A stretch of 64,000 bases of DNA from Craspedostauros australis (lineage: Eukaryota). The position numbers and the translations under genes are program-made. This document shows positions 14,572 to 50,356 of this stretch, piece by piece. Under the pieces are notes generated by a model. It did not search any database, had not been told where the DNA came from, and saw nothing but the letters and a program-made list of their open reading frames with translations. Location: assembly GCA_030167865.1 (NCBI GenBank), contig JALAGF010004003.1, positions 1 to 64,000 of the forward strand. The letters are read 5' to 3'. Position 1 is the stretch's first letter; each line of letters begins with the position of its first letter.

Positions 14572-16986
14572 ATGGACGCCACCGGCTACCCATTGAAGGA
14601 CATCCCACAACCCCATGCCCACGATGTGCTGTGCGGCAGAGGCGGAGGCACCAACAACCACATCGGCAACTCCCACTGGAGGATGCTGGTGGCCGCCAAC
14701 AAGCAGCTGTACATCACTCTGCCCAAGCGGCAGAAGATGCTGCTGTCCAGGAGCATAGTCAACGCGGTGCGCAGCCAGAACCCTCCGGGACGCTTCCTGC
14801 AGAAGGACGCCAAGTCCAGCCTCTGGTTCGACGTCGGGGATCAGAGGGCGCAGGAGAAGACGTCGCAGGCGCTGCGCGAGGGCGCTCCGGACATCCGCAA
14901 CAAGCTGGCGCAGCAGAAGAAGGTCCCCGCGGACGCACCTGCGGATACCGTCAATTCGGCCTCCAAGCCTGCGCCAGCTGACGCGAAGGAGGCGTCCGTC
15001 AGCCCCTCCCCGACGGCAGCGACGAGCAGGCAGCAGAGCAAGAGCGGTTCCGTCAGCGCCAACAGCGTCGGCAACACCAGCACGGCCAGCACCAACGTCC
15101 ATCCGCCGGCGGCAGTCTCGGCGCAAGTCTCCGCTGCTTCCAACCAGGGTGGGTACAGCCAGATGAATGGCGGGCACGGCATGCCGCCCATGGCACCGCC
15201 AGCTCAGATGCAGGCCATGGCGGCAATGCAGCAGCAACAACAGCAGCAACACAACAATAACAACACGAACAACAACAATGGCAACGGCAACATGTTCATG
15301 GATCCAAACATGATGGGACAGGCACAGCAGCAGCAAGGGCAATTCATGACCGGTGGTGCAAACAATGCCATGGGCATGCAATCCACCCAGCTCAACAACC
15401 CGCAGGTGTCCGGAACCGTGGTCAGGGGTGCACCGGGCACGCCCAACGCTGGTCAGATGATGTACTACGCGGGTCCCAACATGGCGCCGATGCCCGTCTA
15501 TCCGACCATGATCCTCAACGAACAAGGTCAGATGGTCCCCGCCATGTCCGTCGTGCCACCCATGATGACGGGGCAGATGATGCAACAACAACAACAGAAC
15601 GCCGGTGGATCTGCCATGGCATCGAACAACAACAACAACACCACCATTGATCCCATCGCGTTAAATTCTGCAGAATCGGCGTCGTCCGTTGCAACGCCGA
15701 AGCACCAGTCCAACCTCAGCCATCCGCACTCGCAGAACGCAATGCAGCAACAACAGCAATTGCAGCAGCTGTACCAAAAGAGCCGAGTATCCAACAGAAC
15801 CTCCATGAACCAAGGCCAGCAAGGACAAGGCAACAACAACAGCAACAACAACAACGGTACATACGCTGGCGCGCAGGGCGGCAAATCGGATGGTGTCATG
15901 AACTTTGAAGATTACATAGCGATGCTGCCACCGGATGCCCTGGAACCGGCCGGTCTGTCATTCGGTTCCGTCACAATGACAGATGCGGAGCAATCCAAGC
16001 TCGAGTCCACGGGCACTTCCTTCGGTTCCATCATGTCTTACAAGCCCATTAACTTTGGAGGATCCAACGCAAACAACCGACAAGAACAGGTCGCATTCTT
16101 CAACCAACAAAGGCAGCAACAACAGCAGCAGCAGCAGCAGGGAGGCAAACCACAACATGGCGACAACAGCAACAACAACAATGCGCCTGCCGCACCCGGG
16201 GAAGCGGGTGTGCCGCAGGCGCTGGATGGTCTGGAACCGACCGGCATTTCGTTCGGCGACATGTCGATGATGAGCGTTGGAACGAACAAAAAGCTGGAAG
16301 ACACGGGGACCTCCTTCGGTTCCATGATGAGTTACAACACGATCCGTGCAGACGCGGTCGACGGCGGGTTGGAGGCCATCGGCGCGTCCTTCGGCGAGCT
16401 ATCCATCGACACGACCTCCAAGGAGAAGCTCTTCCAATCCCTCGAACTGGCGGCGGCAGGACCAGAAGTCCCACCCATGTTCCCAGAAACGCAGGCCAGA
16501 TCCACAGCCAACCTCCTCGAATGCTCCGACACGGAATCCGAAACATCGCAGGACAAGCAGGTCCTGCAGGCGCAGAAAAGTGCGGCATGGGAGAAGCTGC
16601 AGGAAAAGTTCGCCCTGCAGACGACGCAGCCAGAAACGGGCGACGAAATGCCGCCACCGCCTGGTGGCATGCCCAGCAACGGACCCACCTTCGTCATGAC
16701 GGGCATGCCGGGACAGTTGGCCATCCCGTCCGCCGCCAACTTTGGACGCAACTTTTCGCAGCTCTCTGCGTTCAGCGTCGGCAACAATGCGGCAGCGAAC
16801 GGCCAGGAACAATATCCCGGAGAATCGAGGCCAGCGGACGATGACGAGGATGAAATTGCGGCCGTGCCTCCACCGCCGCCGCCCATGGCGAAGCATGATG
16901 ATGAAGGTGAACAATTGGAACGGTATTATTTGCAGCGTGGCAATTCGTTGGGTGAAGAATTCGAGGGTAATCGAGCAAGTGTATAG
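14572..16986 (+). CDS. DUF6824-domain protein with Q/N-rich disordered tail (putative regulator)
   Basis: N-terminal HDVLCGRGGGTNNHIGN...IVNAVRSQNPPGRFL...WFDVGD..A.EKTSQALRE is the diatom-expanded DUF6824 signature. ORF is 804 aa and uninterrupted. Confidence 0.85.
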   Translation: MDATGYPLKDIPQPHAHDVLCGRGGGTNNHIGNSHWRMLVAANKQLYITLPKRQKMLLSRSIVNAVRSQNPPGRFLQKDAKSSLWFDVGDQRAQEKTSQALREGAPDIRNKLAQQKKVPADAPADTVNSASKPAPADAKEASVSPSPTAATSRQQSKSGSVSANSVGNTSTASTNVHPPAAVSAQVSAASNQGGYSQMNGGHGMPPMAPPAQMQAMAAMQQQQQQQHNNNNTNNNNGNGNMFMDPNMMGQAQQQQGQFMTGGANNAMGMQSTQLNNPQVSGTVVRGAPGTPNAGQMMYYAGPNMAPMPVYPTMILNEQGQMVPAMSVVPPMMTGQMMQQQQQNAGGSAMASNNNNNTTIDPIALNSAESASSVATPKHQSNLSHPHSQNAMQQQQQLQQLYQKSRVSNRTSMNQGQQGQGNNNSNNNNGTYAGAQGGKSDGVMNFEDYIAMLPPDALEPAGLSFGSVTMTDAEQSKLESTGTSFGSIMSYKPINFGGSNANNRQEQVAFFNQQRQQQQQQQQQGGKPQHGDNSNNNNAPAAPGEAGVPQALDGLEPTGISFGDMSMMSVGTNKKLEDTGTSFGSMMSYNTIRADAVDGGLEAIGASFGELSIDTTSKEKLFQSLELAAAGPEVPPMFPETQARSTANLLECSDTESETSQDKQVLQAQKSAAWEKLQEKFALQTTQPETGDEMPPPPGGMPSNGPTFVMTGMPGQLAIPSAANFGRNFSQLSAFSVGNNAAANGQEQYPGESRPADDDEDEIAAVPPPPPPMAKHDDEGEQLERYYLQRGNSLGEEFEGNRASV

Positions 16987-17322: not shown

Positions 17323-19701
17323 CTATGACGTTTCTTTCGTCTCGGCACCGTCCTGCACCACCCGCTCCTGTTCCGTGGAGATGACGTTGAGCATTTCGTC
17401 CATCTCTTGATCCTTGAGAACGACGGAATTGTACAAACTGCTCTTCGAGATCTCGGTGCCCACCGACGAGGCAAAATTGGAGCACTCCGCCATCATCTCG
17501 TTGACGTACGTGTAGAGGTAGGTGATGAAGCTGTCGTTCGTGGTTGCTCTGCTCGTCGTTGTTGTGGGCGTCGTGTACTGGCACATCTTGATGCATTGTT
17601 CCATGAAATCGTCGGGCAGGACGGATCGCTCCGTCGACGATGATATCGATGAGGCATCGGAAGATGCCATGTCGGTCAATGTTCGGACGTCATCCGCGTT
17701 GTTGTTGGTGTTGATGTTGCTGCGTGTGGGTGTCAGGATTTCTTCCTTTTCTTCTCCTTCCGATGGCGCCTTGATGACGAGGGCAGCGTCGTTGCTTTCG
17801 GCCGTCTCCGGCGTGCCAATGTCCACCTCTTCCATGTCTGCTGCCTGCTCCATGTCGGCTGCCTGTTCTGTAGGTGGCTCTGCGTCTACATCCGGTTCCG
17901 TGATATTGGCCGCTGCTTCCTTCGATGCAACCTGTTGCTGTTGCTGCCGCGCGGGTGACGCGAAGACGCTGTTGGTGAGCTCGCTGGTGGGACTTTGGCT
18001 GCGCTGCACGGCGACATCGACGAAGGGCGTCGCACCGGGGTTGTTGGTGACGAAGGCGTCCAATCCCGCAAAGATATCGTCGTCTTCGTCGTGGCCCATA
18101 TCCTTGTTGTACTTGTCGTGCTTTGAGTTGAGGATGCTGCTGAGCATCTGCGGCAGGTACTTGACGGCGCCCGATTCGTCGGGGGAGAATTGCGTGCCGA
18201 AGAGCATGGAGTCTGTGGAGTCGCTGTTGCCGGAGAGTTTGGATTCGCCGAATATGGTGCTGCCGGCCAGCGTGCTTCTGTCGGTTGCGGCGTTATTATT
18301 GTGAGCGTTGTTGTGAGGAGCATCCTTTGTTGGTGACACGACAGGAACGCCATTGGTGTTGGATGCCGCCTGCGGCTGATCGTTGGATGATTCATCGAAG
18401 GGCGTTGCGTCCGTATCCACCCTGCGAGCATCCACATCCGCGATATTGCCATAATCATCATTCTGATTCTGGATCATATTGGGCGTAGTGCTGTTGCCAT
18501 TGCTGTTGCCATTGCTGTTGCTGGTCTTATGTTGTTGACGATGAGTAGTGGATTCCACCGAATCGGAATCGATGGACAAGACATCGAAGAGCTCATTGGG
18601 ATTGCTGCTCTTCTTGTTCTTTCTGCTGGCTCTCCTGGAAGCCTTGTCGTTGCTTTTGCCTTTGGCATTGTTGGTATCATTGTTGGCGGTGGGATCGTTG
18701 TTGTCGTCGTTGTTGTCGTTGGTGTCCTGAGTCCTGCTGCCATCCACACTGCCGATACTGCTGGAGATGGAATTTGACGCAAGCGACAGAACGCCGTCGA
18801 TACTGGCCTCAAGCTCGTCAAAGATGTCATTGACGAAGTACTGGCTGGCCTGCTCATCGAGCTTCTCGAGCTGCTGATTGAGCGGCGTCGACGATTCGAT
18901 GATCTTGGACCTCTTCTTCTTCTTGCGCTTCTTGGAGACCTCCTTGGCGTAGACCAGCTCCTCTACTTGATCGTGCCATCGCACGTGGTTGGAAGCCGCC
19001 GGCAACGAGGCCGCGTCGATATCCGCCTCGCTGAAGGGCGCGCCAAAGGCATCGGCGTGCAGATCGTCGTTGCGCATGGCGGTGTCGCGGCGCAAGCCAT
19101 GCTGGTGGTACTCGTCGCGCCAATCGTCATCGGATATGATCTCGTAGGCCATGCTGACGGCCTGGAACCGCGTCTTGGTGAGGGAGGAGACGTCGTCGCC
19201 GACGCTGCGGCTGCTCTGCAGGACGACGTCGCCGCCATTGCAATTGGACTCGGCCAGGACCTCCCTGCCGCGCTTGAAGTAGGCGATGCGCACTTGGCGC
19301 TGCGTGGCCGTCTCGGGCAGATGCAGCACGTCGGTGTAGAGGTTGACGTTGCTTCCGAAGCCCTTGACGATGGTGCGGATGTAGCTTTGGGGGATGCTGC
19401 TCATTGTGTTGCTGTTGCCATTGCTGTTCTTGCCATTGCTGTTCTTGCCATTGCCATTGCCTTTATTAGCATTGTCAGGAGTGATGACGGATGGCTTGAG
19501 GATGCCCTTGCTGACGGTGCTGTTGCTGGAGGAGGAGATGCCTGTGTTCACGCTCAAGTTGCTGCTCAAGTTGCTGCTGAAGTGGGCTCCTCCATTGAAC
19601 GCAGTCTTGCCACCCATGTGAGCGCTGCTGATGCAGCTCACGTCGTCTGCGTCGGCTGGTTCCGCAACGGCCGGCTTGGTTACTTGTGGCGCGTCCACCA
19701 T
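17323..19701 (-). CDS. J-domain-like protein (no HPD motif) with long acidic/low-complexity region
   Basis: LYTDVLHL...ATQRQVRIAY...TRFQAVSMAYEIISDDDWRDEY matches DnaJ helices, but HPD is absent. ORF is ~790 aa. Confidence 0.7.
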   Translation of the reverse strand: MVDAPQVTKPAVAEPADADDVSCISSAHMGGKTAFNGGAHFSSNLSSNLSVNTGISSSSNSTVSKGILKPSVITPDNANKGNGNGKNSNGKNSNGNSNTMSSIPQSYIRTIVKGFGSNVNLYTDVLHLPETATQRQVRIAYFKRGREVLAESNCNGGDVVLQSSRSVGDDVSSLTKTRFQAVSMAYEIISDDDWRDEYHQHGLRRDTAMRNDDLHADAFGAPFSEADIDAASLPAASNHVRWHDQVEELVYAKEVSKKRKKKKRSKIIESSTPLNQQLEKLDEQASQYFVNDIFDELEASIDGVLSLASNSISSSIGSVDGSRTQDTNDNNDDNNDPTANNDTNNAKGKSNDKASRRASRKNKKSSNPNELFDVLSIDSDSVESTTHRQQHKTSNSNGNSNGNSTTPNMIQNQNDDYGNIADVDARRVDTDATPFDESSNDQPQAASNTNGVPVVSPTKDAPHNNAHNNNAATDRSTLAGSTIFGESKLSGNSDSTDSMLFGTQFSPDESGAVKYLPQMLSSILNSKHDKYNKDMGHDEDDDIFAGLDAFVTNNPGATPFVDVAVQRSQSPTSELTNSVFASPARQQQQQVASKEAAANITEPDVDAEPPTEQAADMEQAADMEEVDIGTPETAESNDAALVIKAPSEGEEKEEILTPTRSNINTNNNADDVRTLTDMASSDASSISSSTERSVLPDDFMEQCIKMCQYTTPTTTTSRATTNDSFITYLYTYVNEMMAECSNFASSVGTEISKSSLYNSVVLKDQEMDEMLNVISTEQERVVQDGAETKETS

Positions 19702-20673
19702 TGCAACAATCATCTTGTTCTGTGTGTTTCTGTGTGTTGTTGTGTTGTTGTGTTGTGCTGCTGGATGAGGTGATGATCAATGATCAATGATCAATCAGCA
19801 GAGCGCGATGCAGATGCAGTGCTATGAAACGACCTATTACACGCACTACCAGTGATGCTTCTCTTGCTACTATATCAACTTGTCGTCTTGTCTTGTCTTG
19901 TCTTGGCTCGACCTTCGTTCCACTCTTGGCTTTGTCACTTCTTCCTCCGCTCTCCTGTTTGTCATATAATATTGTAGTAATAGTAATAGTAATAGCAATA
20001 GTACTATACTACTGCAGTTCACGAGTCCAAGAACAAGTACAACCACAAGTGCCTCTTGTCACCCTCTCCTCTCTTGTGATTGCCCAATGCTTCTCGCTTC
20101 CTCTCTCTCCCTCTCCCTCTTTCTGCACGAGCACCTCGAACGTCTTCTCCTCTTCTTCGACTCCTCCACAACCGTTTCTCCCTCTTTTTCCATTCCTTGT
20201 TCCCTTGCCTCACCCTTGTGCTCTCGCGATGATCATCACCAACCGCACCAGTTTTGTTTCCAAAATGTGTCATGCCCGCCCACTCGCGACTTCCGCGGCG
20301 CGCACCTCCATTTTTTATCTAACGGAGACGTTATCGCAGGGCCAATGGCACGCACGAGAACGGAAACAGAAGACAAGCGGGACACACCACTTTTTGGCGC
20401 CAATTTTTGGTGTGGTTCGTAAATTCACACACAGGCGCGTGCCAGTGGCGGGAAGTACTGGGCTTGGTGATGGTGTTGGCCTTCACTCATTCTTCACTCT
20501 GTCATCAATTGCATCGGTTGTTCTAGGTTTGGTGCTTCAACTTGGAATGTAATTCTTAAATATAGTATTCTAGCTCTTACCAAAGAATAAAATAGAGGAT
20601 GTGAAATGACAAGGTATGGCACTCCACTCTGTTCACTCTTAGCTCTGTCTCTTGCTTATCGCATGCCACACCT

Positions 20674-21750
20674 TCACACGCGATCGCGTGGCGTCGAGAG
20701 ATCACCGAAGACACCATCGTACAGCTGGATCTCACCGTTGGCCGAGTACGCCTTCATCATCAGAGGTTGGAAGTAGTCCTCGCCCTTCGACATGCCCAAC
20801 CCGCGCCCGCGATGCACGATGACGCCGCCCAGAACGGTGATCTCGCTCACCGTGTTCCAGATGTTGGGTTGCGACAGAATCTCGTCCTTCATCTGCTGCT
20901 GCACACTCTCGGCGCAGACATCGTACATGCCCAACACGGCGGATGCCACGACGTCGTTGTGGTTGCCGTTCGTCTTGGCCACGATCTTGCCGACGTCACC
21001 GCTCTTCGTGCCTGCCACGACATCCGACAGCAACCGCGACGACGGCGATGGCGCGGATTGTCCGAACCGTTCCACCTGTCCCAGCACGCCGTTCGTATCG
21101 ATGCCGACATCGGGCGCCACGATGATCAGAAGCTTGTCGTTGCCATTGCCGGGACAATGCGAAATGAATTCGGACACACCGGGCGCCGCGATGTCCATAG
21201 CAAATACGCCGGTATCGACATTGAGCAACTTGCTCTGCAAACTGGGAATCAAACTGCCCGGCGTGTCGTTCAGTTCGTTGCCAGTCAGCGCCGCCGCGAT
21301 CATGGTGTTGTACGGGAAGTACCCGCGCTTGCGCAACGTCCCCGCCACGCGCAGGTTGATGACAGAGCTCGTGAGGGATCCGCCGTAGTACTGGCCACGC
21401 GATGCTTCGAAGGCCTGCGGGATGGATTGCAGGGCCATGGCGGACTGCGGCGCGGTCATGGCGAGCAGCGGCAGCAGGATGCGGGCTTGGCGCGGTGTCA
21501 TTTGTCCGTGCGCGGGTTCGAAGGGTGTGATGTTGTTGCTATTGTTGTCATTATCGTGATTATTGCTGTTGTCGTCGTTGGAAACGGCCGAGCATCGGCT
21601 GGTGGATGACTGTGCCCATTTCGCAACGCGGTTTGTTGAGAATGCTTGCACCGTCCACGAGTTCGATGGAGAAGGAACAATTCCGATCAATGCAAGCAAA
21701 GCAAAGGTCAGCATCGCAAGTGCGGATCGATTGGAACGATGGTGCACCAT
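20674..21750 (-). CDS. LCIB / theta-carbonic-anhydrase-like protein, plastid and probably thylakoid-lumen targeted, degenerate active site
   Basis: Signal peptide ending VQA-F, then a transit region, then the hydrophobic RQARILLPLLAMTAPQSAMA. Collinear LCIB-like blocks follow: GY.PYNTMIA..L..NELN, SHCP..., APDVGID..G..G.VERFG, ITVLGGVIV, EDYFQPL. Confidence 0.7.
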   Translation of the reverse strand: MVHHRSNRSALAMLTFALLALIGIVPSPSNSWTVQAFSTNRVAKWAQSSTSRCSAVSNDDNSNNHDNDNNSNNITPFEPAHGQMTPRQARILLPLLAMTAPQSAMALQSIPQAFEASRGQYYGGSLTSSVINLRVAGTLRKRGYFPYNTMIAAALTGNELNDTPGSLIPSLQSKLLNVDTGVFAMDIAAPGVSEFISHCPGNGNDKLLIIVAPDVGIDTNGVLGQVERFGQSAPSPSSRLLSDVVAGTKSGDVGKIVAKTNGNHNDVVASAVLGMYDVCAESVQQQMKDEILSQPNIWNTVSEITVLGGVIVHRGRGLGMSKGEDYFQPLMMKAYSANGEIQLYDGVFGDLSTPRDRV

Positions 21751-21790
21751 GATGGGAATATGGGATGGTGGATTGCAACTGTAGTTGTGA

Positions 21791-21833
21791 GTGCATAGGT
21801 GCATAGGTGCATGAGTGCATGAGTGCATGGGTG
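21791..21833. repeat. Imperfect 8-mer tandem repeat (GTGCATRR) x5
   Basis: gtgcatag gtgcatag gtgcatga gtgcatga gtgcatgg gtg, 40-80 nt upstream of the LCIB-like start codon. Confidence 0.85.
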
Positions 21834-22825
21834 TTGCCAATGATGTTCTTGACACCCACATCATCGGTTTGGATCTATGCCTTGAATTCGAGAAAGATAC
21901 GTTGGGTGTACCAACAGAAGTACTACCCATGAGGTATCTGGATGTTCTTCCGATACGGATGTGTTTGTGGAGAAAGTTGTTCTGTTGCTGACGTTGGTGT
22001 CACCAAGTGGTGGAGTTGGGTGTGCAAACTTGTGCGTGTCTATCCCTCCGGAGAGTATTACCCATCTCGAGAGAGAGAGAGAGAGCAAGAATGGCTTGAT
22101 CGCCTCTACCATCCGCCCCATCTGCAATCTCATGTCCTCCGACAATGATTATGGAAAGATCCGAAACGATTCTCTACAAGCACGAGTATTAGAATGAGTA
22201 ACCTCATTCAATGAGCGTGCAACGATCTTGAGAGACCACCGCGGCTTGGGATCTTTCACTCCTGATGTTGCTCCAGCCCAAATGATGGTGGCGACCTGAT
22301 ACATACAAATACATCATTCTGGAGAGAAATAGCAATCAAAGAAGAGTTATGGTGTTTGCTCATGGAATCTGTAGTTTTAGTTGATGTTAAATCACGCTTG
22401 GTTCCTGTACAAAAAGGAGGAAACAAGATGGAGATGACTTGGAGTGTTCCAATCAAGTCCACTCCACTTCGTTTGCTCCAACAGCAGAGCAGAGGCAGGT
22501 CCCCTCTCGAGCTTCCAGCTGTGCCCGTCGTTGGAGGCATTGCTTGAGGGCCCCGAAAGGGATTGTTGCCCTATCTCCCTGAGTGCGTTTGTTTGTTTGT
22601 TTGCTTTGGTTGGTTCCGCGTCCGAATCGCGTTGTCTGTACACGCTCACGAAGGCGCTGGTTGTGGACATGCGCGCTGCTGTCCACCACGAAGTATCCGT
22701 ATGTTGCCGCATGAACCAATGGGAACGTGAGTGCGTTGTGTCTGTCTGTGTGCAGATGCACGCGATCGTCCGCGGCGATGGTCGGTGATGCGAACACCAC
22801 GTCCCATCACACCAAATCAAGGCGC

Positions 22826-40073: not shown

Positions 40074-43000
40074 TTAACAAGTATAGGTGTGTGCATCATC
40101 AATGGAGCCATCATCCTTGCCTCCATTTTCGGTGTCGTCGCCAACCGGATCATCGTTCTGAGTCGGTTGCGCATCGACGGTGTCAACCTGCATTTGCAGA
40201 TCATGTAGCGGATCATTTGGCGCCATGATCTCAATTGATAGTGGAGTCTGCTGCTGCTGGTAGTGGTGGTGCTGATGTTGCTGTTGTTCTGGAATTTCGG
40301 CATGACTATTGGGGTCGGATTCTTCTTCCTCCTCGGACGGCGCCCCACAATGCACATCCTGTGGAGACTCTTGTGGTTGATTGAGTTGATTGGAATGTCC
40401 AGGGACATTGTCCTGTTGCGGATATGATTCAGAAGCCTGCATGCTGTCATCCGCGTCTGGTTGCGACTGGCATGCCTGTACCATGCTGCCATCATATCCG
40501 TTCAACAACTCTTCCTGAGCTTGGTACTGTTGCTGCGGATACGCGCGCGCGACGCCGTTTTGCTGTGCATACTCGTCGGAATCAATGGCTTGATGCCCTT
40601 GCCCTTGCTCGTACTCCTGATATTGGACATCCATCTGATCACCATACTCCTGCCCCTGTCCCTGCTGATACTGGTGCTGCGAATCATGAACAAATTCTTG
40701 CTCATTCTGATCCTCCGCGTTGTCACCATCGAATGACCCGCGCTGCAATGGTTTGTCGGAATCCATCTCACGCATCGACTCCACCAGCTCCTCCAATTCC
40801 TCAATACGCCGTTCGCAATCGATAATGTCCGTATGCGCGGCCTGCAATTCATTGCGCAACCCGCTCGTGTCCGATATCTCCAGGCTCTGCAACCACCGCT
40901 GTCCGGCCTCGCGCGTCTTGGCATCGATGACGACGCGCCGATCCTGCGACGCGATGGCGAAACGGAATCGTCCATCGGAATAACCGACGTTATCCGAGAT
41001 CATGACCGTGACGTCTCCGAACGTGTGCGTCATTTGGCTGTGCGAAGTGTTGTTGTTGTTATCGAGGTTGGGATGAGAATCGACGGCGGCGTCCGCGAAC
41101 CAGTTGCTGGATTCGTAGGCGTAGGAGTCGTGGATTTCATCTTGGATGGTGATGTCCCATCCCTTGGCGGCATTGACGAAGAGGGCGGTGGCGGCGATCA
41201 TGCAGTAGGCCGTGACGAACATCCATTGCTGGCCGAAGTCCCAGCAGTCGCCCGTGTTGCTGTCGCATTGTTCCCAAACGGTGCTGCTGAAATTGTCCAC
41301 GCCGGCGATGGGGAAGTGGATGATGCCCGTGAGGGAGAGGACGCCGCCCACCATGGCCCACGACGCGACGTGCTTCCACTTGCGATCGATGATGGAGACG
41401 ATCATGGACGTCCAGACCATGGAGATGAGCAAGGATCCGCGTTTCCATGCCAGAACGCCGACGAAGGATGTGGATCCAGGGAGGTTGGTGTTGAAGGAGG
41501 TTTCGGCATCTTCGATGGGTGTGCGCGCGCCGATGTTGACGACCCAGTCGTAAATGGCGGGAAAGATGCCCAACAGGTATGCCGGGAAGTGACGCGGGGA
41601 CATGAAATTAAGAATCTCTTCATTGACGAGAAGACCGATGGTGAAGACGATGGGCCCCGTCGTGGCCTGGTTGACAATGGCCTGGAAGATGGCGAGAAAT
41701 CCAAACAGCGACAGGATGAGATAGATGAACCCGTTGGCGATGGAATATCCGACCGTGGCGCCAGACCGCTTGTGCGCCGGATGGCCAATGTACACGACCG
41801 TTCCAAAGGGCGATCCGAAGAAGGATGCGATCATGGTGCCCACGCCATCCATGATCAACGTCTCGCGCACGGGATACGGATCGCCGGCCTCCTTGGCGCA
41901 CATGAGGCACATGAGCGAGTTGATGGGCCCGCTGATTCCGAGCGGGATGATGATGCCGAGGTATTCCCGCGTCATGCGGAAGTTCTGGAATATCTCGTGT
42001 CCCGTGAACTTGGGCCACGTCGCCGTGACGAATTTGGACGCATCACGCACGGTGGCGGCCTTGTTGAGGCCCGTGGCCCAACCCAAGGCGACGCCGACGA
42101 GGATGACCATCAAGGCTTCCGGTATGCGGCGCTTTCCGATGCCCACCTTGACGCCCGCGTACCAGCCCAGGAAGACCCAGAGGATGGTGTTGTAGCCCAC
42201 GATGGGAGCCGCCAAACAGTTGGTGAGCTGCTCCAGACCGAGAAATGCCAGACCGATTCCTGCCACGGGAACGAGCAAGGCCACGGGCTGAATGTACCGC
42301 AGCAACACAGGACCGACGATGCCCACGAGGACCGATATCATGCCCTGCACGAAATTGGATGCCAACGCGACGCGGTATGCCAGCATGAAGGCCTCATCCG
42401 GCGAATAGACCTCGTCGGTATCTCCCTCCTTCTGACTTCCCACCGTCGCAAAGAACACGGGATAGATGATGTTGTACACAAAGGCGAATGCCGAGTAGGT
42501 GTTGATGCCGTAGGGTTGCGCCGTGTACTGGCGCTTCCAGAAATTGGACAACCGAATGGCCACCCAGGCGTAGTACAGATTGCCGATGGCCAAGGTGACG
42601 CCGAGTCCGGGTGCGATTTGCTGGAAGAGGAGCGAGTTCATGGTGTGGGACGTGACGCCTCCCAAGCGACAGAGCTCTTGCGTGGCAAAGAGGACGCCGA
42701 GGATGGTGGAGAGGTTGTCAAAGAATAGCTGGCACAGACTGCCCGTGTCTCCCGGTGTCATGCGCAGGCCAGCATAGATGTTGCGGAGTTCCTGCAGACA
42801 ACGTTGTGCGAAGTTGCGTTTGTCGGTTGAGGAGCGGCTGAAGCCGCCGTTGTTGTTGTTGTTGTTGTTGTTGTTATGGTGGTGGTGGTGAAGATTGGTG
42901 CTTCTGGTACTGTTGCTGTTGCTGTTGTGCGAATGTTCATACTCGTAGTCGAGGGAGTTGCGAAGCAGTTCTTCCTGCTGCTGCTGCTGTTGCTGCTGCT

Positions 43001-43469
43001 GCTGATGATATGAGTGTTCATGTTGGCCCTCGTGCTGATATCCATACCCGTGCTGGTCGTATTCACAGTCACCATGCGGTTGCTGCTGTGGGGGATGTTG
43101 TTCATGCAAAGGCTGGTGATACGGTTGCTGTTGCTCCAGTTGTTGCTCCAGTTGTTGTTCTTGTTGCTGGTGGAGATAGGAGTGCTGGCGATGATGGCCA
43201 TTGCCATGGAGATTGTAAAGTTCCTGTTGCTGCAACTGTTCCTGCTGTGGATGACGAGGAACTGGTTGACCATCATGTTGATGATCATCATGAGCATCGA
43301 ACTGCTGCGACAAGGCAGCCGAAGCACGCAGCTCCGCGGGAACATCTGCGCAGAAGAAGGACGAGATGATTTCGGAGGCAGTGATCTGCGCCGACAGAGC
43401 AGACGGTCGTTCTTCCTGATACGACCGTCTGGTGGGACTGTGCGTGCTGGAAGCGTTGTCGTTCGTCAT
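40074..43469 (-). CDS. NCS2/AzgA-like nucleobase (xanthine/uracil/ascorbate) permease with Q/H-rich N-terminus and PH-like/coiled-coil C-terminus
   Basis: LFFDNL, PYGINT, AGDPYPVRE, GSPFGTVVYIGHPAHKRSGA and many TM segments. Confidence 0.82.
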   Translation of the reverse strand: MTNDNASSTHSPTRRSYQEERPSALSAQITASEIISSFFCADVPAELRASAALSQQFDAHDDHQHDGQPVPRHPQQEQLQQQELYNLHGNGHHRQHSYLHQQQEQQLEQQLEQQQPYHQPLHEQHPPQQQPHGDCEYDQHGYGYQHEGQHEHSYHQQQQQQQQQQEELLRNSLDYEYEHSHNSNSNSTRSTNLHHHHHNNNNNNNNNGGFSRSSTDKRNFAQRCLQELRNIYAGLRMTPGDTGSLCQLFFDNLSTILGVLFATQELCRLGGVTSHTMNSLLFQQIAPGLGVTLAIGNLYYAWVAIRLSNFWKRQYTAQPYGINTYSAFAFVYNIIYPVFFATVGSQKEGDTDEVYSPDEAFMLAYRVALASNFVQGMISVLVGIVGPVLLRYIQPVALLVPVAGIGLAFLGLEQLTNCLAAPIVGYNTILWVFLGWYAGVKVGIGKRRIPEALMVILVGVALGWATGLNKAATVRDASKFVTATWPKFTGHEIFQNFRMTREYLGIIIPLGISGPINSLMCLMCAKEAGDPYPVRETLIMDGVGTMIASFFGSPFGTVVYIGHPAHKRSGATVGYSIANGFIYLILSLFGFLAIFQAIVNQATTGPIVFTIGLLVNEEILNFMSPRHFPAYLLGIFPAIYDWVVNIGARTPIEDAETSFNTNLPGSTSFVGVLAWKRGSLLISMVWTSMIVSIIDRKWKHVASWAMVGGVLSLTGIIHFPIAGVDNFSSTVWEQCDSNTGDCWDFGQQWMFVTAYCMIAATALFVNAAKGWDITIQDEIHDSYAYESSNWFADAAVDSHPNLDNNNNTSHSQMTHTFGDVTVMISDNVGYSDGRFRFAIASQDRRVVIDAKTREAGQRWLQSLEISDTSGLRNELQAAHTDIIDCERRIEELEELVESMREMDSDKPLQRGSFDGDNAEDQNEQEFVHDSQHQYQQGQGQEYGDQMDVQYQEYEQGQGHQAIDSDEYAQQNGVARAYPQQQYQAQEELLNGYDGSMVQACQSQPDADDSMQASESYPQQDNVPGHSNQLNQPQESPQDVHCGAPSEEEEESDPNSHAEIPEQQQHQHHHYQQQQTPLSIEIMAPNDPLHDLQMQVDTVDAQPTQNDDPVGDDTENGGKDDGSIDDAHTYTC

Positions 43470-44301
43470 GGTCGCAGTGTCTCCAACAGCAGCAATAGCA
43501 GCAGCAGTTGTGGATGTAGCTGTGGATGTAGCACTAGCACGACCATTAGCATGGGTGCAGTGGTCGGCGATGTTATGGTATGCTCAGCGGCACTTTGTTC
43601 CCCAGAGTGCTTTATCCCTTTGGGGCGCCCTTGCCACCAACAGCAACAAGCCTCAACGGCGCACACTCCCAATGGTCGCCCCCACGAGTGATGATGCACC
43701 ACAGGGTACCTGGAGCCTCTCTCTCTTCGGTATTGTATGATGCGATCTATGAACACCAACGTCCTCCCTAACCGCAGTGAAGGTACAATGCCACTTTGGT
43801 TAGCCACGCGGGCAAAGAGGAGTTGTTGTTCTGCCTTTCCTCCTGTGTTTTCGTTCGCCTTCTTGTTCCGTGCCACACACTGGTTCCTTGCTTCTCTTTC
43901 GTGCCATTTACAAGATGGTTGGGACGGGACATTGCTTGTCCCGCCAGCGTAAGTGATAAAAAGCATATCTATAGATGACTTCTGTCACAGTTAAGTGTCC
44001 TCACTGAATCATCACTCACAAGTTCTGTTGCCAAAACCGAAGGAATTTTGTCTCTCATCACCACAAAGGCGAAACGATCACCAACGATCGTGGTTTTATC
44101 GTCGTGTGGTCGTCTTAATCTGCTACTACGACTCTAGAGAGACTGCAAGCTACGGTTTGACCGTCCTCGTCACTAGCTGAACGGACACTCCAACCAAACA
44201 TCAAATCCATTCTCATTCTTCTCCAGAGAGTGGATGTAGATACCATGGTCGTGCTCGTCCATCGTACGACCTACGAGTAGCATGATCCTATTGCACGTCG
44301 C

Positions 44302-47300
44302 TTACCCATACCGCACCCCGCTCTCGTATGGATTCGAGATCCGGATTGGCTTGGGTGGACTGGTCACGTCCGGCATGTCGCTGCCATCTCCGGACATGGG
44401 CGTGCCGCTGCGATCGAACAGCATCGAGGTGCCATGCGATGGAACGACGGATCGCGGGCTGCGGGATGCAGCGCGTCGCAGACGGGCCTCGCGCACCGAC
44501 TTCAATCGTTGGAACAGCGACGCGTTCTTCGTGGCCAGCGAGTTCGTCAGCTTTTGGTAGACGTTCGACATGCTGTACGAATTGCCGCTGTTGGATGGCG
44601 GTCCGCCGGAAGAGCCAGACGAAGGTGCGGAATGGCCCTGGTGATTGCTCCTCTCGTTGCGTCTCGATCCTCTCGATTTCGCCTTGTAGTCATTGCCACC
44701 CATGTAAGCACCGGAATCGCCCCGTCCATCAGAATGGAACAGCGGCTCTGGCGGCGTCGCATGAGACTTCGGCAACGATGAGGACTTCTTCGCCTTCTTG
44801 TTCCTTCCTGCGTTGGACGACGACAGCGGCTCCGGTGCGCGGCTTGGGTGCGTGCGGCCGAAGTACCCGCCAGGTTTGGCAGAGCTCAATGAAGCGGCGC
44901 TGGAACGCGCGGGGCTCTGTTCTCGCCGAGCCGCCTTCCTGCTCTTTATTTGCTGCTGTCTCTGCATCAGCTGCTGCGTCCTGGCATCCATACCCGAGTG
45001 TGCCGAGTACTTTCCGGAGAAGTCGGATTTGCTCGTCACTCGACCCACGGCTCCGGGCGCTGACGTCGAGCTTCTTGGATGCTGTTCTGGACGTTGACCT
45101 TCGGAATTCGATGAAGCTGCGCGAGTAGGCACATTGTCATTGACATTGACATTCCTCATGTTGCTGGTGCCGACACCATGACTATCCCCAGGGCGGCCTC
45201 CATTCATCATTTCCTGCGCCGGTCCAGAGTTTGTCACAAGCTGACGCATCTTCCGTTCTTGAGTGGTGCCAGCTACTTCCACCGTTGCCGAAGTGGTCAT
45301 GCTGCTGGCATCGTACTTCTTGCCACCTGCACTAACATGATCGTCTGTCATCACAACTGTGCTCTTCGGACGTCCACCAAGGGACTTCGTGTGCGATGCA
45401 TTCGGCAACAGTGACGACATATCCATGGTCGGTCCGGAATGATCAGAAGTCAATGCCACCTTCTCCAAGTCAGTGGCCAACGCCCTTTGATGGTGCGTGT
45501 CGATGTTCGATGATGCGGACGCCGTCGAGCCTGGACCTATGCGTTCCTTCCCTGCTGACACATCCTCCATGGGCCAGCTGTCGGTGGTCGAATCAAGTCG
45601 GATACGGACACGAGAACCGTCGCGTTGGTTCTTGCCTTGGTTCTTGCCAAGCAAGCCTATGGGTTTGGCCATCTTGTAGGCACTTCGCAACAATCGCGAT
45701 GTGCGCTTCGATGCAGAAGTGTTGCTTCCATTGTGCGATGCGGCACCGGATGTTTGACTGCCTAACTTGCGTCGTGCATCCTGTGAACTCCTGTGACCGC
45801 TGTACCTGTGACCACCCAACAAATGCCTGTTGTCATCATCATTTTCGTTGCTGGGAGTGCCGGTGTTCGCAGCTGCCTCTTCCTCTTGATCGAATGGCTG
45901 CCAATCCGACAGCGGGAAGCTCCCGTCTGTGTCATGCGAGTTTTCTGACACCGCCTTCCTGGAGCCCAGGAATGACCCATCGAGCTGACCAATGTCCCAT
46001 CCGAACGCACGCCCATCCGTAGCTGTGGGCTTCTTCACTTGGAATGGGCTTGGTGTGCCGCCGGAAGATCTGGATACATTCGTCAAGCGTTCTTCTGGCT
46101 GGCTGTGGAGTGCCTCCGTCTGATGATGCGGTTGCTGCGAGAAATGACGTTGTCCTCCTGTCGCACCTGCCCCTGTTGCTGCTGTTTGCGGTGTGCGATT
46201 GGGCGCACCTTGCTCTTCGTCCATCTCGTTGATTCCCCTGAATCCTGCTCCTTCCTCCTCTTCGTTGTCGCTGGAGGATATCGCGCTCAGCTGCGGATTA
46301 TGCTGAGGGCTCCGCAACGCGGTTGGATTTGTCAGATTGGAGACCTCGGCGATCGACAAGTCCAACGTCACTCCATCCGAAGATTCGGTATCCCCAGACC
46401 CCCCTCTGCCATCGCCACTTTGCAATTGGTTCTGTAGTAGACTCAGTGGTTGCCGATGCCACCGCTGTGGTCGTTGCTGCTGCGATTGCCGATGTGGAAC
46501 ATGGTTTGTGGATGGTCTCGACATTTGGAAACTACGCGCGTGATCGTCGGGTTGATGTTGAGATGGCCAGCTTACCCCTGCAGGTTTCGCATCTTGTATT
46601 TGTACATGTCGTTGCACGTTCGTCGGATTGGTGTTATCGAGCTGCGCTCCATCATCGAATGATCGGCTTGACGTTCGCTGAACGTCGTGTGGTGATTCCA
46701 TATCGTCATCACCATCATCGCCCTGAACCGAAGTCAAATCGTACGATCCGGATCGTTGCAAATTGCCATTCTCATCGTACCGTCCAATCAATGCCTCAGA
46801 CTCTTCACGCACCTCATGGTGTTTCTGCTTGTTCTTGGACCGGAAGAATTTGCTCTTGGTGGTGGTGGTGTTGCTGACGTTGCTCTGATACTTTGCAAGA
46901 CCATCCTTTCGTGGCCGTGATAGTGCATTCAACCGATCTTTCATCGCCTGGAATGGTGAAATGGCTGGCACGGAATTCTTCTCAGATACGGCGTTGTAGT
47001 AGTTACCCGTCTTCTTGAAAGCTTTGGTGGTTGCAATTGGCTTGATGCTGTTGTTGCTCTTAGAATCCACACGGCGAGTATTGCCGATGGCCCCATCCTT
47101 CTGGCTGTGAATTGCTTTGCCAACTTCTTGTTTTGGCGCTACCGATGTCTGCATCCCAGCTACTTTCGGCTTCGTGTTCGGGAGGATAACAACTGGCAGT
47201 TTTACTGCAGCAGCCGGTGGATCAGGTGCGTCCGACCTGTTAATGATCGGTCGATGCTCTTCTGTCCATATTGGTTCTTTCGCGACACTTTCTTCAACAA

Positions 47301-48976
47301 CTTCGGTGGTCCCAGGTTTGTCCGAAACAATTATCCCCATGTGAGGACTGAGCACCGCTTGTTCGCTGGATGTAGATCCAGACTCCACAACGGAAGGAGC
47401 GGCAACGGGTATTGGCAACGTCGGCAACATCGCTGGTCTGACATTGACGGTTTCTTTGTGCGGCATGGTGGGAGACGTTCCGGAATACGCTTGCGCACGT
47501 TCTCGAATGTTGTTGGAAACCCCGGGCTTTGTGACGGTTCGATCGAACTTGGCTGTCAATTTCGAGATGGAGGAACTTCGGGTCGGTGATGGCACGTGCT
47601 TGATGCCGCTGCTGTTCCCGAACCGACGCACGCTGGTGGTGGATTCGAATCTCCCGCGCAGGCCCCGCACGCTGTTGTCATCGTCGTCGTAGCCGCCGAA
47701 TGGAGAAATCCTCTGCTTCGATGGTTTGGGCTCGAATTGCTTGCGCAGCGATCGGACGCTATTGTCGTCATCATCATCCGTGACAACGCTTTCAGTTTGT
47801 GGTGGACGCGGTGGCTTTGATTCGAATCGTTGGCGCAAACTCCTCACACTCATGTCATCGTCGTCGTCGTTCTGATGTTGCGGATGATTCGCAACGTGCT
47901 GAGGCTGACTCGATGGTTCGAATCGTTCCCGCAGACTTCGAACGCTGTTGCTGTCATCATCGACGCCAACAGTGTTGTCGTCGTATCTGTGGTACGGCTT
48001 GGGCCTTGGAGGGTGTTGCTGCTGCCTTGGTTCATAACTCTTGATGCTCATGTCATCATCGTACGCGGAACGCAACGTGCTGACATCCATGCTCATGTCA
48101 TCCTCCTTCTTCTCTTCGCCCCCACCATGACGCAAGATGTTGTGCGGAATCCCTGTGATGATCGATTGCTGCTGTGGTTGGCTGAGTTGACGAATGCGAT
48201 CTTTGACAGATCCGGTGGGCGTGCCGATCCGTTGGAAGGTGGGTGCCATACGGCCGCTGGCCACGACCCCATTTTCGTGCGGGGCCTTGCGCTGCGCATT
48301 CATGATGTTGACCAATTCCGTTTCATTCGAGACTTCCTCCTGACCGATGATCGGATCCGGCTGGTGCTTGGTCAACTTGTTGCGCAAACGAGACACGTTG
48401 GTAGTCGTACCACCACCGACCGAATTGGAACGCTGCTGCTGCTGATTGAGACGATGGATGTTCTGGTTCATGGATCGCGATCTGCCTCTTTGCGTGGGTC
48501 GATCTGGTGAGCTTCCCACCGAGATATCCAATCGATCCATGGAAAAGACCGGCTGAATTTGCGAGGCCGGGTCATTGGGAGGCAGGTTGGGTGGCAACCC
48601 GGCAGGCGGCCAGCTGCCGGACGAATCTGAGAGCATGAGGCTGTTGTCGTAGGGATTGCGACGCGCCGGCTTGGGCGGTTCCTGCGTCGCCATGGAATAG
48701 ACCACCTTGCTGGGCTGCGGCGTCGCGTAGACCGGCTTGGGTCGGATGGCCGGTTGCTGCAACGCCCGGATCGTGGAGTGTATCCGCTTCGTTCCCGGTT
48801 TGGTGATGGGACGCCCCCCGAAGACTGCTTTCAATGCAGGATCGCTCTGTTCTACCGCATCCTTCCCCGTTTCCACGCCGATGGATGAGATGCCGACGGA
48901 TCCCGTTTGGTCTGTGGAGTTTTGTTCTAACGTCGGTGGTTCATGATTGAGAATCTGATGGTTCTGAGTTGGTTGT

Positions 48977-49041
<65 letters not shown>

Positions 49042-50199
49042 TTGCTGTTGTTGCTGCTGTTGCTGTTGTTGCTGTTCCATATGAAGCCCCAATCGCCCCT
49101 TAGATTGTGATGCATCGGCAGACGGTGGATTCGATCTCCTCGCATCATCCAAACTCCTCCCATTCGAACTGGATTCATTGGACGTGTCATCCATCAAACA
49201 ATGAATGGATTCCACTTGCGGCGTCGGCCTGTACAATGACGCTGTGGATGATGGTTTCTGTTTCTGCTGCCAAAATTCGCGCGCGCTGCGTGGTTCCGGC
49301 GACCGTGTCTGTTCGACTGCGGCATCGATCTTGGCTGCGATCCCAGCAAATTTGACCGCGACATCGTGGGTGCGATTGGTCATGACTTCCGTGAGTGCAT
49401 CGTCGTTGTTGGAGGCCATCAAATGCAAGGGCATACGCGATAGATTGGCCATGACTTCCGTGGGCGCCGATGTGCCGTGGTCGCTTGCAGCGCTTTTGGG
49501 CGTGGATGGCTTTTGCCTGCGAGGCGTCCGCAGCGTCGGAGTGAGAGGCGACGTCCTCGGAAACATGGAGAGCGGCGTCGTGGGGGTGCGGCTCCTAGCG
49601 TTGCTGGCATGCGATTTGTGGCTGTGATTGCTGTGACTTGGCTGTCTCGCGAGCATGGAATTGTTGCGCTGCACGTTGTCGGCCGTGAGATGGGCCGGTG
49701 AATGTTGGGGACGCTTGGCGGGCTCCATGGAGGACTTGGATGCGATGGAGGAGCAGTCGTCTTCGATGCCCAGGTGCACCTGCTGCTGCTTGGGGGTGGA
49801 ACGAGTGGCATTGCGAGCCGCACTGCGAGCGTCCATCTGGCGCTCCCTCTGGCGCCATTTGGCAGCGTTGGAGGCCGAGTTGGTGCCCGTGCGGACGGTG
49901 GAGGAGCGCGATCTGGTGTGCGACTGCCTGGTCTCCATCGTCGTCCAGCTGGACAGCGACTTGTTCAAGCTCGAGGACTGATCCATGAGGTGGGTGGCGG
50001 CGGTCGCGTTGCCCAGGGAGTCGCCGCAGTTGTACTTGGACAGCATGGAGGTGTCGTTTGCGTCGTCGCCTTGCCTCCGTTTGAGGGGAGACTCCATCGT
50101 CAGCGTCGAGACGTCCTGCGGCGTGCAGGAGATGGCCTGCAGGTACCTGCTTGCGATGCTCCCGCGCGCCACATTGGCCAATGGATTGGAAGATTCCAT
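44302..50199 (-). CDS. Very large (~1965 aa) intrinsically disordered protein with poly-Q and SVRSLRxxFE repeats
   Basis: Uninterrupted 5.9-kb S/Q/P-rich ORF with internal peptide repeats and no recognisable globular domain. Confidence 0.8.
48973..49074. repeat. CAG/CAA coding microsatellite (poly-Q, ~34 residues)
   Basis: Run of TGC/TGT units on the + strand within the 44302-50199 ORF. Confidence 0.95.
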
Positions 50200-50220
50200 C
50201 GTTCCTGTCAATGCGTATTA

Positions 50221-50356
50221 TATGAATGCGTATGAATGCGTATGAATGCGTGGCAGTACTACTATGGATGCAACAGTCGGAACACCTTCTTGCCCCAACC
50301 CCCGAGACAGTCCAGCTTTCAGTGCAGCCTTCAGTGCAGCTTTCAGTGCAGCCTTC
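50221..50356. repeat. Two short tandem arrays: (TATGAATGCG)x3 and (CAGCYTTCAGTG)x3
   Basis: Seen directly, just upstream of the large disordered-protein gene. Confidence 0.85.

Follow-up and report, generated by a model that had tools for sequence, protein, structure and literature searches.

Tandem acid-prefaced repeats of the SFM actin-binding motif type in a large, probably disordered protein of Craspedostauros australis

Introduction

On the minus strand of a 64 000-nucleotide stretch of Craspedostauros australis DNA (GenBank assembly GCA_030167865.1, contig JALAGF010004003.1, positions 1 to 64 000, called the window below), a long open reading frame (ORF) encodes a protein, P0001, in which a short peptide recurs four times. 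An initial annotation of this DNA had compared the repeats with F-tractin, the actin-binding peptide of ITPKA, and had proposed that they form a multivalent scaffold binding or bundling filamentous actin (F-actin). The question raised by this locus is whether the repeats belong to a known type of actin-binding motif and what they do in their carrier protein. By its sequence-level defining features, the array is of the SFM type (VxxLxxxFE), a class that ITPKA/F-tractin and Lifeact served to define (Paraschiakos et al., Nat Cell Biol 2026; PMC13364712, cited here from the accessible parts of its text, tables and source data). The P0001 family appears to be part of this known class in an unusual acid-prefaced, multi-copy form, and the array is probably a multivalent F-actin-binding scaffold.

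The repeats and the published motif class

An SFM is a single helix within a disordered region. It fills the cleft that separates subdomains 1 and 3 of actin and, once bound, contacts the D-loop of the next actin protomer (PMC13364712). SFM peptides bind with apparent dissociation constants (Kd) of 2–12 µM. Binding in cells is lost when position P1 or P8 of the motif is mutated, and P4 and P9 tune the affinity. Members of the class were selected with SLiMFold, which combines IUPred/ANCHOR disorder filters with the requirement for an AlphaFold2-Multimer interface predicted template modelling score (ipTM) of at least 0.6 in the pose and polarity of ITPKA (PMC13364712).

P0001 comprises 1965 residues plus a stop codon (44302-50199, minus strand; translation of 44305-50199) in a frame that is open from stop to stop over 44302-50217. 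It holds four copies of D-rich-x-S-V-R-S/G-L-R-x-x-F-E between residues 747 and 852. Each copy consists of three to five Asp, one or two variable residues and then S-V-R-S/G-L-R-x-x-F-E. The strict VxxLxxxFE core begins at V753, V785, V815 and V844, giving Val-to-Val spacings of 32, 30 and 29 residues. All four copies reported in the initial annotation, at a spacing of about 30 residues, were recovered in the translation of P0001 (29–32 residues). The interval 47540-48215, which had been assigned to the array, corresponds to residues 662–887; its start is out of frame, yet it encloses the whole array. The copies are listed here with their scores in the published SFM matrix and, where available, the conservation percentile of the core.

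47917-47961, minus strand: copy 1, DDDSNSVRSLRERFE, residues 747-761; 18.8 bits; core at the 97th percentile
47821-47868, minus strand: copy 2, DDDDDMSVRSLRQRFE, residues 778-793; 20.9 bits
47731-47778, minus strand: copy 3, DDDDDNSVRSLRKQFE, residues 808-823; 22.9 bits, the highest of 1956 positions; core at the 95th percentile
47644-47688, minus strand: copy 4, DDDDNSVRGLRGRFE, residues 838-852; 13.9 bits

Scores were calculated with a log-odds matrix derived from the position frequencies (P0–P9) in the source data of Fig. 3d of PMC13364712, which cover eight known SFM families. Its artefact cells were zeroed, and the pseudocounts are our own choice. Under this matrix, the four copies ranked first to fourth (22.9, 20.9, 18.8 and 13.9 bits) among the 1956 ten-residue segments of P0001. 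The best score in 500 shuffled versions of P0001 had a 95th percentile of 9.5 bits and a maximum of 14.3 bits. Between one and five matches above 9.5 bits were found in each of 23 family proteins, and 17 neighbouring ORFs (9428 positions) gave a single match, of 9.9 bits.

The non-anchor residues of the four copies are also typical of known SFMs. In the published matrix, Ser is the commonest residue at P0 (0.27) and Arg the second at P2 (0.25), and Ser at P3, Arg at P5, Glu at P6 and Lys/Arg at P7 each account for 5–13%; P3 of known SFMs is most often Asp (0.29) or Glu (0.21). The P0 Ser of USP54 M1 hydrogen-bonds Asp25 of actin (PMC13364712). The P0001 copies are very close to the cores of the following human SFM proteins, all taken from Supplementary Table 3 of PMC13364712.

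ESPNL, VRTLRGNFE: co-sedimentation, Kd of about 6 µM
USP54, VRSLAEQFQ: about 6 µM; cryo-electron microscopy (cryo-EM) of an improved mutant
PLEKHG3, VRNLREKFQ: listed
ARHGEF15, VRRLAGRFE: listed
ITPKA, VGELRLLFE: founding example

The P0001 family and the SFM class share the V(P1)-x-x-L(P4)-x-x-x-F(P8)-E(P9) core, Ser at P0, a basic residue at P2 and Lys/Arg at P7, as well as a location in a disordered region, a short predicted helix and anchors conserved in orthologues. The published class comes from a search of the human proteome, with a phylogeny of animals and yeast ABP140, whereas the present family is of diatom type. Its members hold three to six scoring or near-scoring copies per protein, compared with one or two in the human SFM entries. 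The present family adds an acidic run ahead of the helix, as well as near-invariant residues at three further positions, D(P-3), S(P3) and R(P5). As in P0001, more than one SFM lies in a disordered stretch of human SORBS1, SORBS2, PLEKHG3, SSH2 and SHROOM3. In SORBS1 (positions 657 and 691) and SORBS2 (473 and 506), the two motifs are 34 and 33 residues apart, against a median of 31 here. Additive or synergistic binding has been proposed for such repeated SFMs (PMC13364712). These human proteins differ from the present family in being unrelated and in carrying folded domains (SH3, RhoGEF, phosphatase). They have two copies each, except PLEKHG3, for which a table comment mentions further copies.

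The comparison with F-tractin made in the initial annotation was sound: the string SVGELRLLFE is printed in the paper on the F-tractin structure (PMC11809415), and the resemblance is real and now falls within a published motif class (PMC13364712). SVGELRLLFE and S-V-x-x-L-R-x-x-F-E agree at six of ten positions. The Val, Leu and Phe of F-tractin are the three residues that fill the actin pocket (PMC11809415); the F-tractin/ITPKA entry of the Protein Data Bank (PDB), 9QGK, is cited in PMC13364712. In F-tractin, the helix is preceded by a basic loop, APRRS, whose Arg-19 (P-2) makes salt bridges to actin's Asp-25 and Glu-334. The importance of Arg-19 for actin labelling was stressed by the authors, who ascribed unspecific bundling of the negatively charged filament to the basic N-terminal region (PMC11809415). 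A Pfam search of the whole 1965-residue protein found no inositol-trisphosphate 3-kinase domain joined to the array. Since both the basic loop and the kinase are absent, the P0001 array is not regarded as homologous to the ITPKA domain; nothing points to common descent. SFMs have been argued to arise de novo (PMC13364712).

Conservation and age of the repeats

Relatives of P0001 were collected with a HMMER pass over 1.84 billion cluster representatives, which returned five proteins of 1619–2096 residues, and with a profile of the array region, which returned 21 proteins, 17 of them new. The 22 relatives (about 520–2100 residues) and P0001 make up a family of 23 proteins. P0001 itself was absent from the 15-billion-protein collection searched. 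A search with residues 700–890 among 2421 candidate proteins shorter than 1080 residues gave nothing at E ≤ 0.01. Organism labels were attached to two of the 22 relatives, P0007 (Nitzschia sp. Nitz4, EukProt) and P0077 (Bacillariaceae sp., metagenome-assembled genome), and the initial guess of a diatom fits both of these, the only labelled ones.

Whole-protein identity among six aligned full-length proteins is only 23–25%, with conservation limited to some dozen short islands. Copies 1, 3 and 4 have cores at the 95th–98th conservation percentile, and in the alignment of relatives the cores stay fixed while linker sequences and lengths vary. P0001, P0004 and P0007 hold one or two copies more than the other three aligned proteins, so that the full-length alignment is gapped at copy 2; in a sub-alignment, copy 2 pairs with the second copy of the relatives. 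Copy 4 aligns with the terminal motif of the relatives, V-[ST]-N-L-[RK]-x-x-F-E, which has no acidic preface. Such a preface-less copy follows the last acid-prefaced copy in 22 of the 23 proteins. Conservation of the repeats in orthologues, to which the initial annotation had tied its proposal, was found throughout: the array was kept in all 22 relatives and thus in 23 of 23 family proteins, with one to five acid-prefaced copies each. The distance from one acid-prefaced copy to the next has a median of 31 residues (range 25–42, n = 43), and that from the last acid-prefaced copy to the terminal copy a median of 19 residues (n = 23).

Residues were counted in 67 acid-prefaced copies from the 23 proteins. 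Selection required a P0 Ser, two or more upstream acidic residues and one of L/I/R at P4, which makes the counts at P0 and P4 partly circular. The acidic preface gave D in 52 copies at P-4 and in 65 at P-3, and D 31, T 15, N 7, E 7, S 3 and G 2 at P-2. Within the motif, the counts were V 64 at P1, R 27 and K 27 at P2, S 63 at P3, L 61 at P4, R 63 at P5, E 40 and D 15 at P6, K 29 and R 22 at P7, and E 61 at P9. P8 was always hydrophobic (F 36, L 20, W 5, Y 3, I 3). The anchor positions (V 64/67, L 61/67, E 61/67), together with the synonymous differences described below, appear to be kept by purifying selection in the relatives.

The strict VxxLxxxFE pattern occurs four times in P0001, compared with a mean of 0.004 in 2000 shuffled sequences, none of which reached four. 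The five closest relatives have 3, 4, 4, 2 and 3 strict copies. Shuffle means for the six proteins ranged from 0.004 to 0.014, and for every one of them the observed count was reached in 0 of 2000 shuffles. Because the copies are duplicates, these counts overstate their independence, and conservation in relatives is the stronger argument against chance. Six of the seven residues that are identical in all four copies use at least two synonymous codons, and Tandem Repeats Finder detected no DNA-level repeat in the array; for these two reasons the copies are not a recent DNA repeat. They are old, the peptide rather than the DNA being what was kept.

Structure predictions

The disorder of P0001 was judged by two proxies, composition and the pLDDT (predicted local distance difference test) of AlphaFold2. 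The protein is rich in Ser (13.6%), Gln (7.7%) and Pro (7.7%), and polar or small residues make up 81% of it. Its mean Kyte–Doolittle value is -1.05, and only 18 of 1945 segments of 21 residues exceed 0.5. This composition points to disorder. No domain at all was found when the whole protein was searched against Pfam. Residues 694–890 were modelled with AlphaFold2 using the six-sequence alignment. The mean pLDDT was 52.7, and 0 of 197 residues reached 70. Helices were predicted only at model residues 58–67, 93–100 and 123–127, which correspond to copies 1, 2 and 3. The description of P0001 as a giant disordered protein agrees with its length, its lack of Pfam domains and both proxies.

A complex was then modelled with ESMFold2 from a single conventional actin chain and residues 733–781 of P0001, a 49-mer comprising copy 1 and 20 residues on either side, as in the SLiMFold design. 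The actin (P0009) is an intact 376-residue ORF from a metagenome contig and was used as a stand-in for the actin of the organism itself. It was found with a degenerate pattern for a conserved actin peptide and is a member of a large cluster, at 90% identity, of conventional actins. By our own count, its numbering is one ahead of that used in the papers, so that I346, L350, I342, S351 and D26 are the SFM-pocket residues Ile-345, Leu-349, Ile-341, Ser-350 and Asp-25. Of these, I346 and L350 show no variation among 23 aligned environmental actins, and I342, S351 and D26 are retained by at least 90% of them.

The complex reached an interaction prediction score from aligned errors (ipSAE) of 0.49 (runs of 0.51, 0.49 and 0.43), graded as 'weak support'. 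Control scores were 0.02 and 0.05 when the peptide was replaced and 0.00 when actin was replaced by an unrelated protein. The runs shared at least 36% of contacts, and the pLDDT of the partner was at least 44. In calibration, 51 of 78 solved complexes and 2 of 108 mismatched pairs attained the mark. Passes at or below 0.60 comprised only 5 of the 78 solved complexes and all four passing mismatches (of 180). Peptide–actin modelling had been suggested in the initial annotation with AlphaFold. With ESMFold2 in its place, the pairing scored 0.49 against a best control of 0.05, a result graded as weak support.

Evidence against actin binding and alternative explanations

Several results weigh against an actin-binding array. 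The SFM consensus is a loose one: the 539 matrix matches of the first SLiMFold pass came down to 59 accepted motifs (PMC13364712). In the AlphaFold2 model, copy 4 is non-helical and no residue reaches a pLDDT of 70. The ESMFold2 score is weak, and passes at or below 0.60 are mostly wrong unless the pairing was likely beforehand. This score came from a stand-in metagenome actin with the family alignments unused, and no pose or orientation was returned. The prediction may recall the solved Lifeact and F-tractin complexes; because like complexes have been solved, alignments were unused and no contacts were given, the pass may reflect likeness only. The charge of the flank is opposite to that of F-tractin, with Asp/Glu at P-2 in 38 of 67 copies and Asp at P-3 in 65, and the basic loop has no counterpart here. 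The published SFM matrix often has acidic residues at P-5 (E 0.27) and P-4 (E 0.13) and rarely at P-2 (about 0.003) (PMC13364712). The acidic run may lower binding at a single site near the acidic patch of actin; it may also hold the linkers away from the filament, or have some other role. Conservation of D(P-3), S(P3) and R(P5) (65, 63 and 63 of 67 copies) exceeds what an SFM requires, which hints at a further or different constraint. Leu or Ile occupies P8 in 23 of 67 copies, and the P8 changes described in the accessible parts of the publication are from Phe to Ala or Phe to Glu only.

These same features feed the alternative that comes next in probability, a possible but clearly less likely one, in which a non-actin partner docks at the repeats. 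D-D-x-x-S-V-[RK]-S-L-R-[ED]-[KR]-hydrophobic-E would be a linear motif in its own right, perhaps phosphorylation-dependent, and the likeness to VxxLxxxFE would be no more than expected of any amphipathic helix with i, i+3, i+7 spacing that ends in Glu. In its favour, the most conserved positions are those that an SFM does not need, the flank is acidic where that of F-tractin is basic, the SFM consensus is loose and the complex score is weak. However, the copies take the top four of 1956 places under a matrix built from SFMs only, which also scores the non-anchor positions, and the complex score collapsed when either actin or the peptide was replaced. No other partner was suggested by the Pfam, PDB or ESM Atlas searches. 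Binding to actin monomers, with nucleation or sequestration as in the tandem WH2 proteins Spire and Cordon-bleu, is considered very unlikely. Four to seven cleft-binding helices about 30 residues apart would suit such a role, WH2 helices occupy the same cleft between subdomains 1 and 3 (PMC13364712), and the complex prediction cannot tell monomer from filament because a single actin chain was used. Yet no copy is followed by an LKK[TV]-type segment, the polarity of the WH2 helix is opposite and SFM geometry suits filaments, and the nearest validated peptides, those of ESPNL and USP54, bind filaments (PMC13364712).

Less likely still is that the helices bind calmodulin or some other EF-hand protein, with or without competition from actin. 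They are amphipathic, with basic residues at P2, P5 and P7, and calmodulin displaces the SFM of caldesmon from actin (PMC13364712). On the other hand, each unit carries a net acidic flank, and no search or prediction result points to calmodulin. The V, L and F anchors, at 1-4-8, are small and closely spaced compared with those of usual calmodulin targets. Least credible of all is a neutral low-complexity repeat with no specific function. P0001 is of low complexity overall and has a 34-residue polyglutamine run, but all 23 family proteins retain the motif at 23–25% identity (six aligned), a degree of divergence that excludes the relatives being very recent copies of one another. The copies also show synonymous differences, and their cores are fixed while linkers vary.

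Other identities were tried and rejected. The residues after P9 are rich in P, S and K and hold no LKK[TV], and no WH2 domain was matched in Pfam. Nebulin repeats are about 35 residues long and carry SDxxYK; this signature is absent from the array, and Pfam gave no nebulin match. Nebulin and tandem WH2 proteins work on the principle considered here, one short actin-binding unit per 30–35 residues or so, with successive units meeting successive subunits, but the linkers in P0001 are disordered and acidic, not helical. The SOCS N-terminal domain, PF12610, reached a summed score of 24.1 bits on residues 694–890 (P0003), against a cut-off of 23.7 bits, with no single stretch passing. This score is a short word match, coming only from repeated 11-residue matches of the word S-V-R-S-L-R-Q-R-F to positions 32–42 of the 57-position profile. 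SOCS proteins were not found in the searched parts of the SFM table (PMC13364712). A β-TrCP-like degron, D-[ST]-G-x-x-x-S, fits some relatives but not the copies of P0001. PDB sequence searches at E ≤ 10 gave no match with the array profile or with a 53-residue piece comprising copies 1 and 2, a 10-residue motif being below the sensitivity of the search, and the ESM Atlas search gave no usable match.

Proposed mode of action and significance

For the favoured reading, an F-actin-binding array, we infer every step that involves actin from what was observed, namely the motif, its conservation, the matrix fit, the disordered context and the local helices. Each copy would fold on contact and place its Val, Leu and Phe in the cleft between actin subdomains 1 and 3, beside the D-loop of the neighbouring protomer, docking as F-tractin, Lifeact and USP54 do. 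A single copy would bind with micromolar affinity, and four exact plus up to three looser copies within about 220 residues would add avidity. P0001 could lie along one filament or bridge filaments, as a tether or bundler, and the other conserved islands of its 1965-residue chain would connect it to other partners.

The filament rise in the reconstructions of the SFM paper is 27.6–28.4 Å (PMC13364712). The period of about 31 residues would be made up of a 10-residue helix and about 21 linker residues, with sites on the same strand about 55 Å apart (twice 27.6 Å). As 21 or so extended linker residues span about 55 Å, one copy per protomer along a strand would be feasible, and so would the bridging of two filaments. 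The 19-residue step to the terminal copy leaves about nine linker residues, which would probably not stretch to the neighbouring site along that strand. The last acid-prefaced copy and the terminal copy may bind alternately or to different filaments.

Binding might also be switched on or off by phosphorylation. D(P-3), S(P0), S(P3) and E/D(P6) form a ladder spaced by i+3 that could act as a hierarchical cassette of the CK1/CK2 type, the hierarchical consensus of these kinases being acidophilic. Ser and Thr are enriched at P-2 to P0 of SFMs, and phosphorylation of P0 has been suggested to weaken binding, because the P0 Ser hydrogen-bonds Asp25 in the acidic patch (PMC13364712).

In its broadest form, the proposal would be that giant disordered scaffolds of the diatom lineage evolved, independently of animals and fungi, arrays with one F-actin-binding helix per protomer, switched by the phosphorylation ladder, which organize or anchor the actin bundles of pennate diatoms at the raphe or the forming valve. 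All of this together is rather unlikely, and a role in raphe-associated actin bundles or in valve formation is a guess. Gliding of raphid diatoms takes place on raphe-associated actin bundles and involves raphid-specific myosins; a protein that organizes these bundles is not named in the accessible parts of the publication (PMC11420354).

The SFM class was defined from human proteins, and animals and yeast ABP140 make up its evolutionary analysis; the accessible parts of PMC13364712 do not map its occurrence beyond animals and yeast. Within a limited literature collection, no paper linking SFM or Lifeact-like motifs to diatom proteins was found, and a text search for the peptide strings gave no match. 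The P0001 family offers a concrete candidate in the form of a roughly 120-residue fragment that holds four motifs. If it binds, SFMs would have arisen convergently far outside the opisthokonts, natural arrays of at least four copies would exist, and the acidic flank would be tolerated or used for regulation. If it does not, even a conserved and perfect VxxLxxxFE match would be insufficient to call an actin binder.

Other features of P0001 and its neighbourhood

Three degenerate copies, SVKDRIRQLS, VSTLRSAYD and SISKLTAKFD, had been reported to flank the array. All of them were located, on both of its sides, and are listed here with a neighbouring charged box.

48181-48210, minus strand: upstream variant helix SVKDRIRQLS, residues 664-673; outside the top 12 matrix scores in P0001
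48100-48117, minus strand: EEKKED box, residues 695-700; acidic-basic, directly before the array; aligned in six of six sequences
48058-48084, minus strand: degenerate copy VSTLRSAYD, residues 706-714; 6.0 bits, under the shuffle threshold of 9.5
47542-47571, minus strand: degenerate copy SISKLTAKFD, residues 877-886; 7.4 bits, under the threshold; not conserved in relatives

SVKDRIRQLS has the family consensus S-[VI]-[KR]-[DE]-x-[IV]-x-x-[FYL]-[NS], and one such motif was found by regular expression in 17 of 23 family proteins. Among the listed human SFMs, helices of this type resemble the SORBS1 and SORBS2 cores, V-x-x-R-I-x-x-[FY]-E (PMC13364712). Three plus-strand ORFs overlap the array (47821-48510, 46960-47589 and 47345-47692). 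They had no Pfam match and were treated as shadows, because they are antisense to a coding frame that is conserved in 22 relatives.

The GC content of codon positions 1, 2 and 3 of P0001 is 0.56, 0.51 and 0.63. The N-terminal and internal islands could be aligned with five full-length relatives, and the island pattern reads as a string of short linear motifs along a putatively disordered chain. One of the best conserved in the family, SDGVTLD-x-SIAEVS-x-LTNPTA (residues 1274–1297; 46309-46380, minus strand), has 15 invariant columns in six proteins and recurs in the distant members P0090 and P0091; no Pfam match was found for it. Further conserved islands on the same strand are as follows.

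49729-49767, minus strand: IEDDCSSI
49363-49395, minus strand: (GAP)TEVMTNRT
48508-48558, minus strand: IQP[LV]FS[LM]DRLD
46921-46959, minus strand: SPF-x-[AS]M[KR]-x-RL
44473-44517, minus strand: C-terminal basic helix, L-x-RLKSV[KR]-x-ARLRR

The polyglutamine run consists of 34 uninterrupted Gln (residues 376–409; 48973-49074, minus strand) encoded by mixed CAG and CAA codons, and Tandem Repeats Finder called a 6–27-nucleotide repeat there. It was not seen in P0002, the only relative compared, in a pairwise alignment of the surrounding region. In 14 of the 22 relatives, the C-terminus is [LIVM]-x-[LIVM]-D (e.g. ...LAVD), and P0001 ends in ...SGVRYG (44302-44320, minus strand). All three minus-strand frames across 43401-44420 were inspected for a downstream exon with such an end, and none was seen. 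Either the gene model may be incorrect at its 3' end or the C-terminus may have diverged. Just upstream of the start codon lie two short tandem repeats, a 10-nucleotide unit present 3.1 times at 100% and a 12/24-nucleotide unit present 4.1 times at 89–96% (50221-50251 and 50308-50356, respectively).

Directly downstream of the P0001 gene, on the same strand, lies an ORF of 1169 residues with no Pfam match and one marginal SFM match of 9.9 bits. It is listed with other ORFs of the window.

40077-43583, minus strand: the 1169-residue ORF
20677-21999, minus strand: LCIB/C-like domain of the β-carbonic-anhydrase type, PF18599, E 3.6e-14
17326-19776, minus strand: 817-residue ORF with no Pfam match
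14545-16983, plus strand: DUF6824 protein, E 4.8e-30

Neighbours in the window also include mTERF, Gpi16 and O-methyltransferase proteins. Together with the LCIB-like and DUF6824 proteins, they fit a photosynthetic stramenopile.

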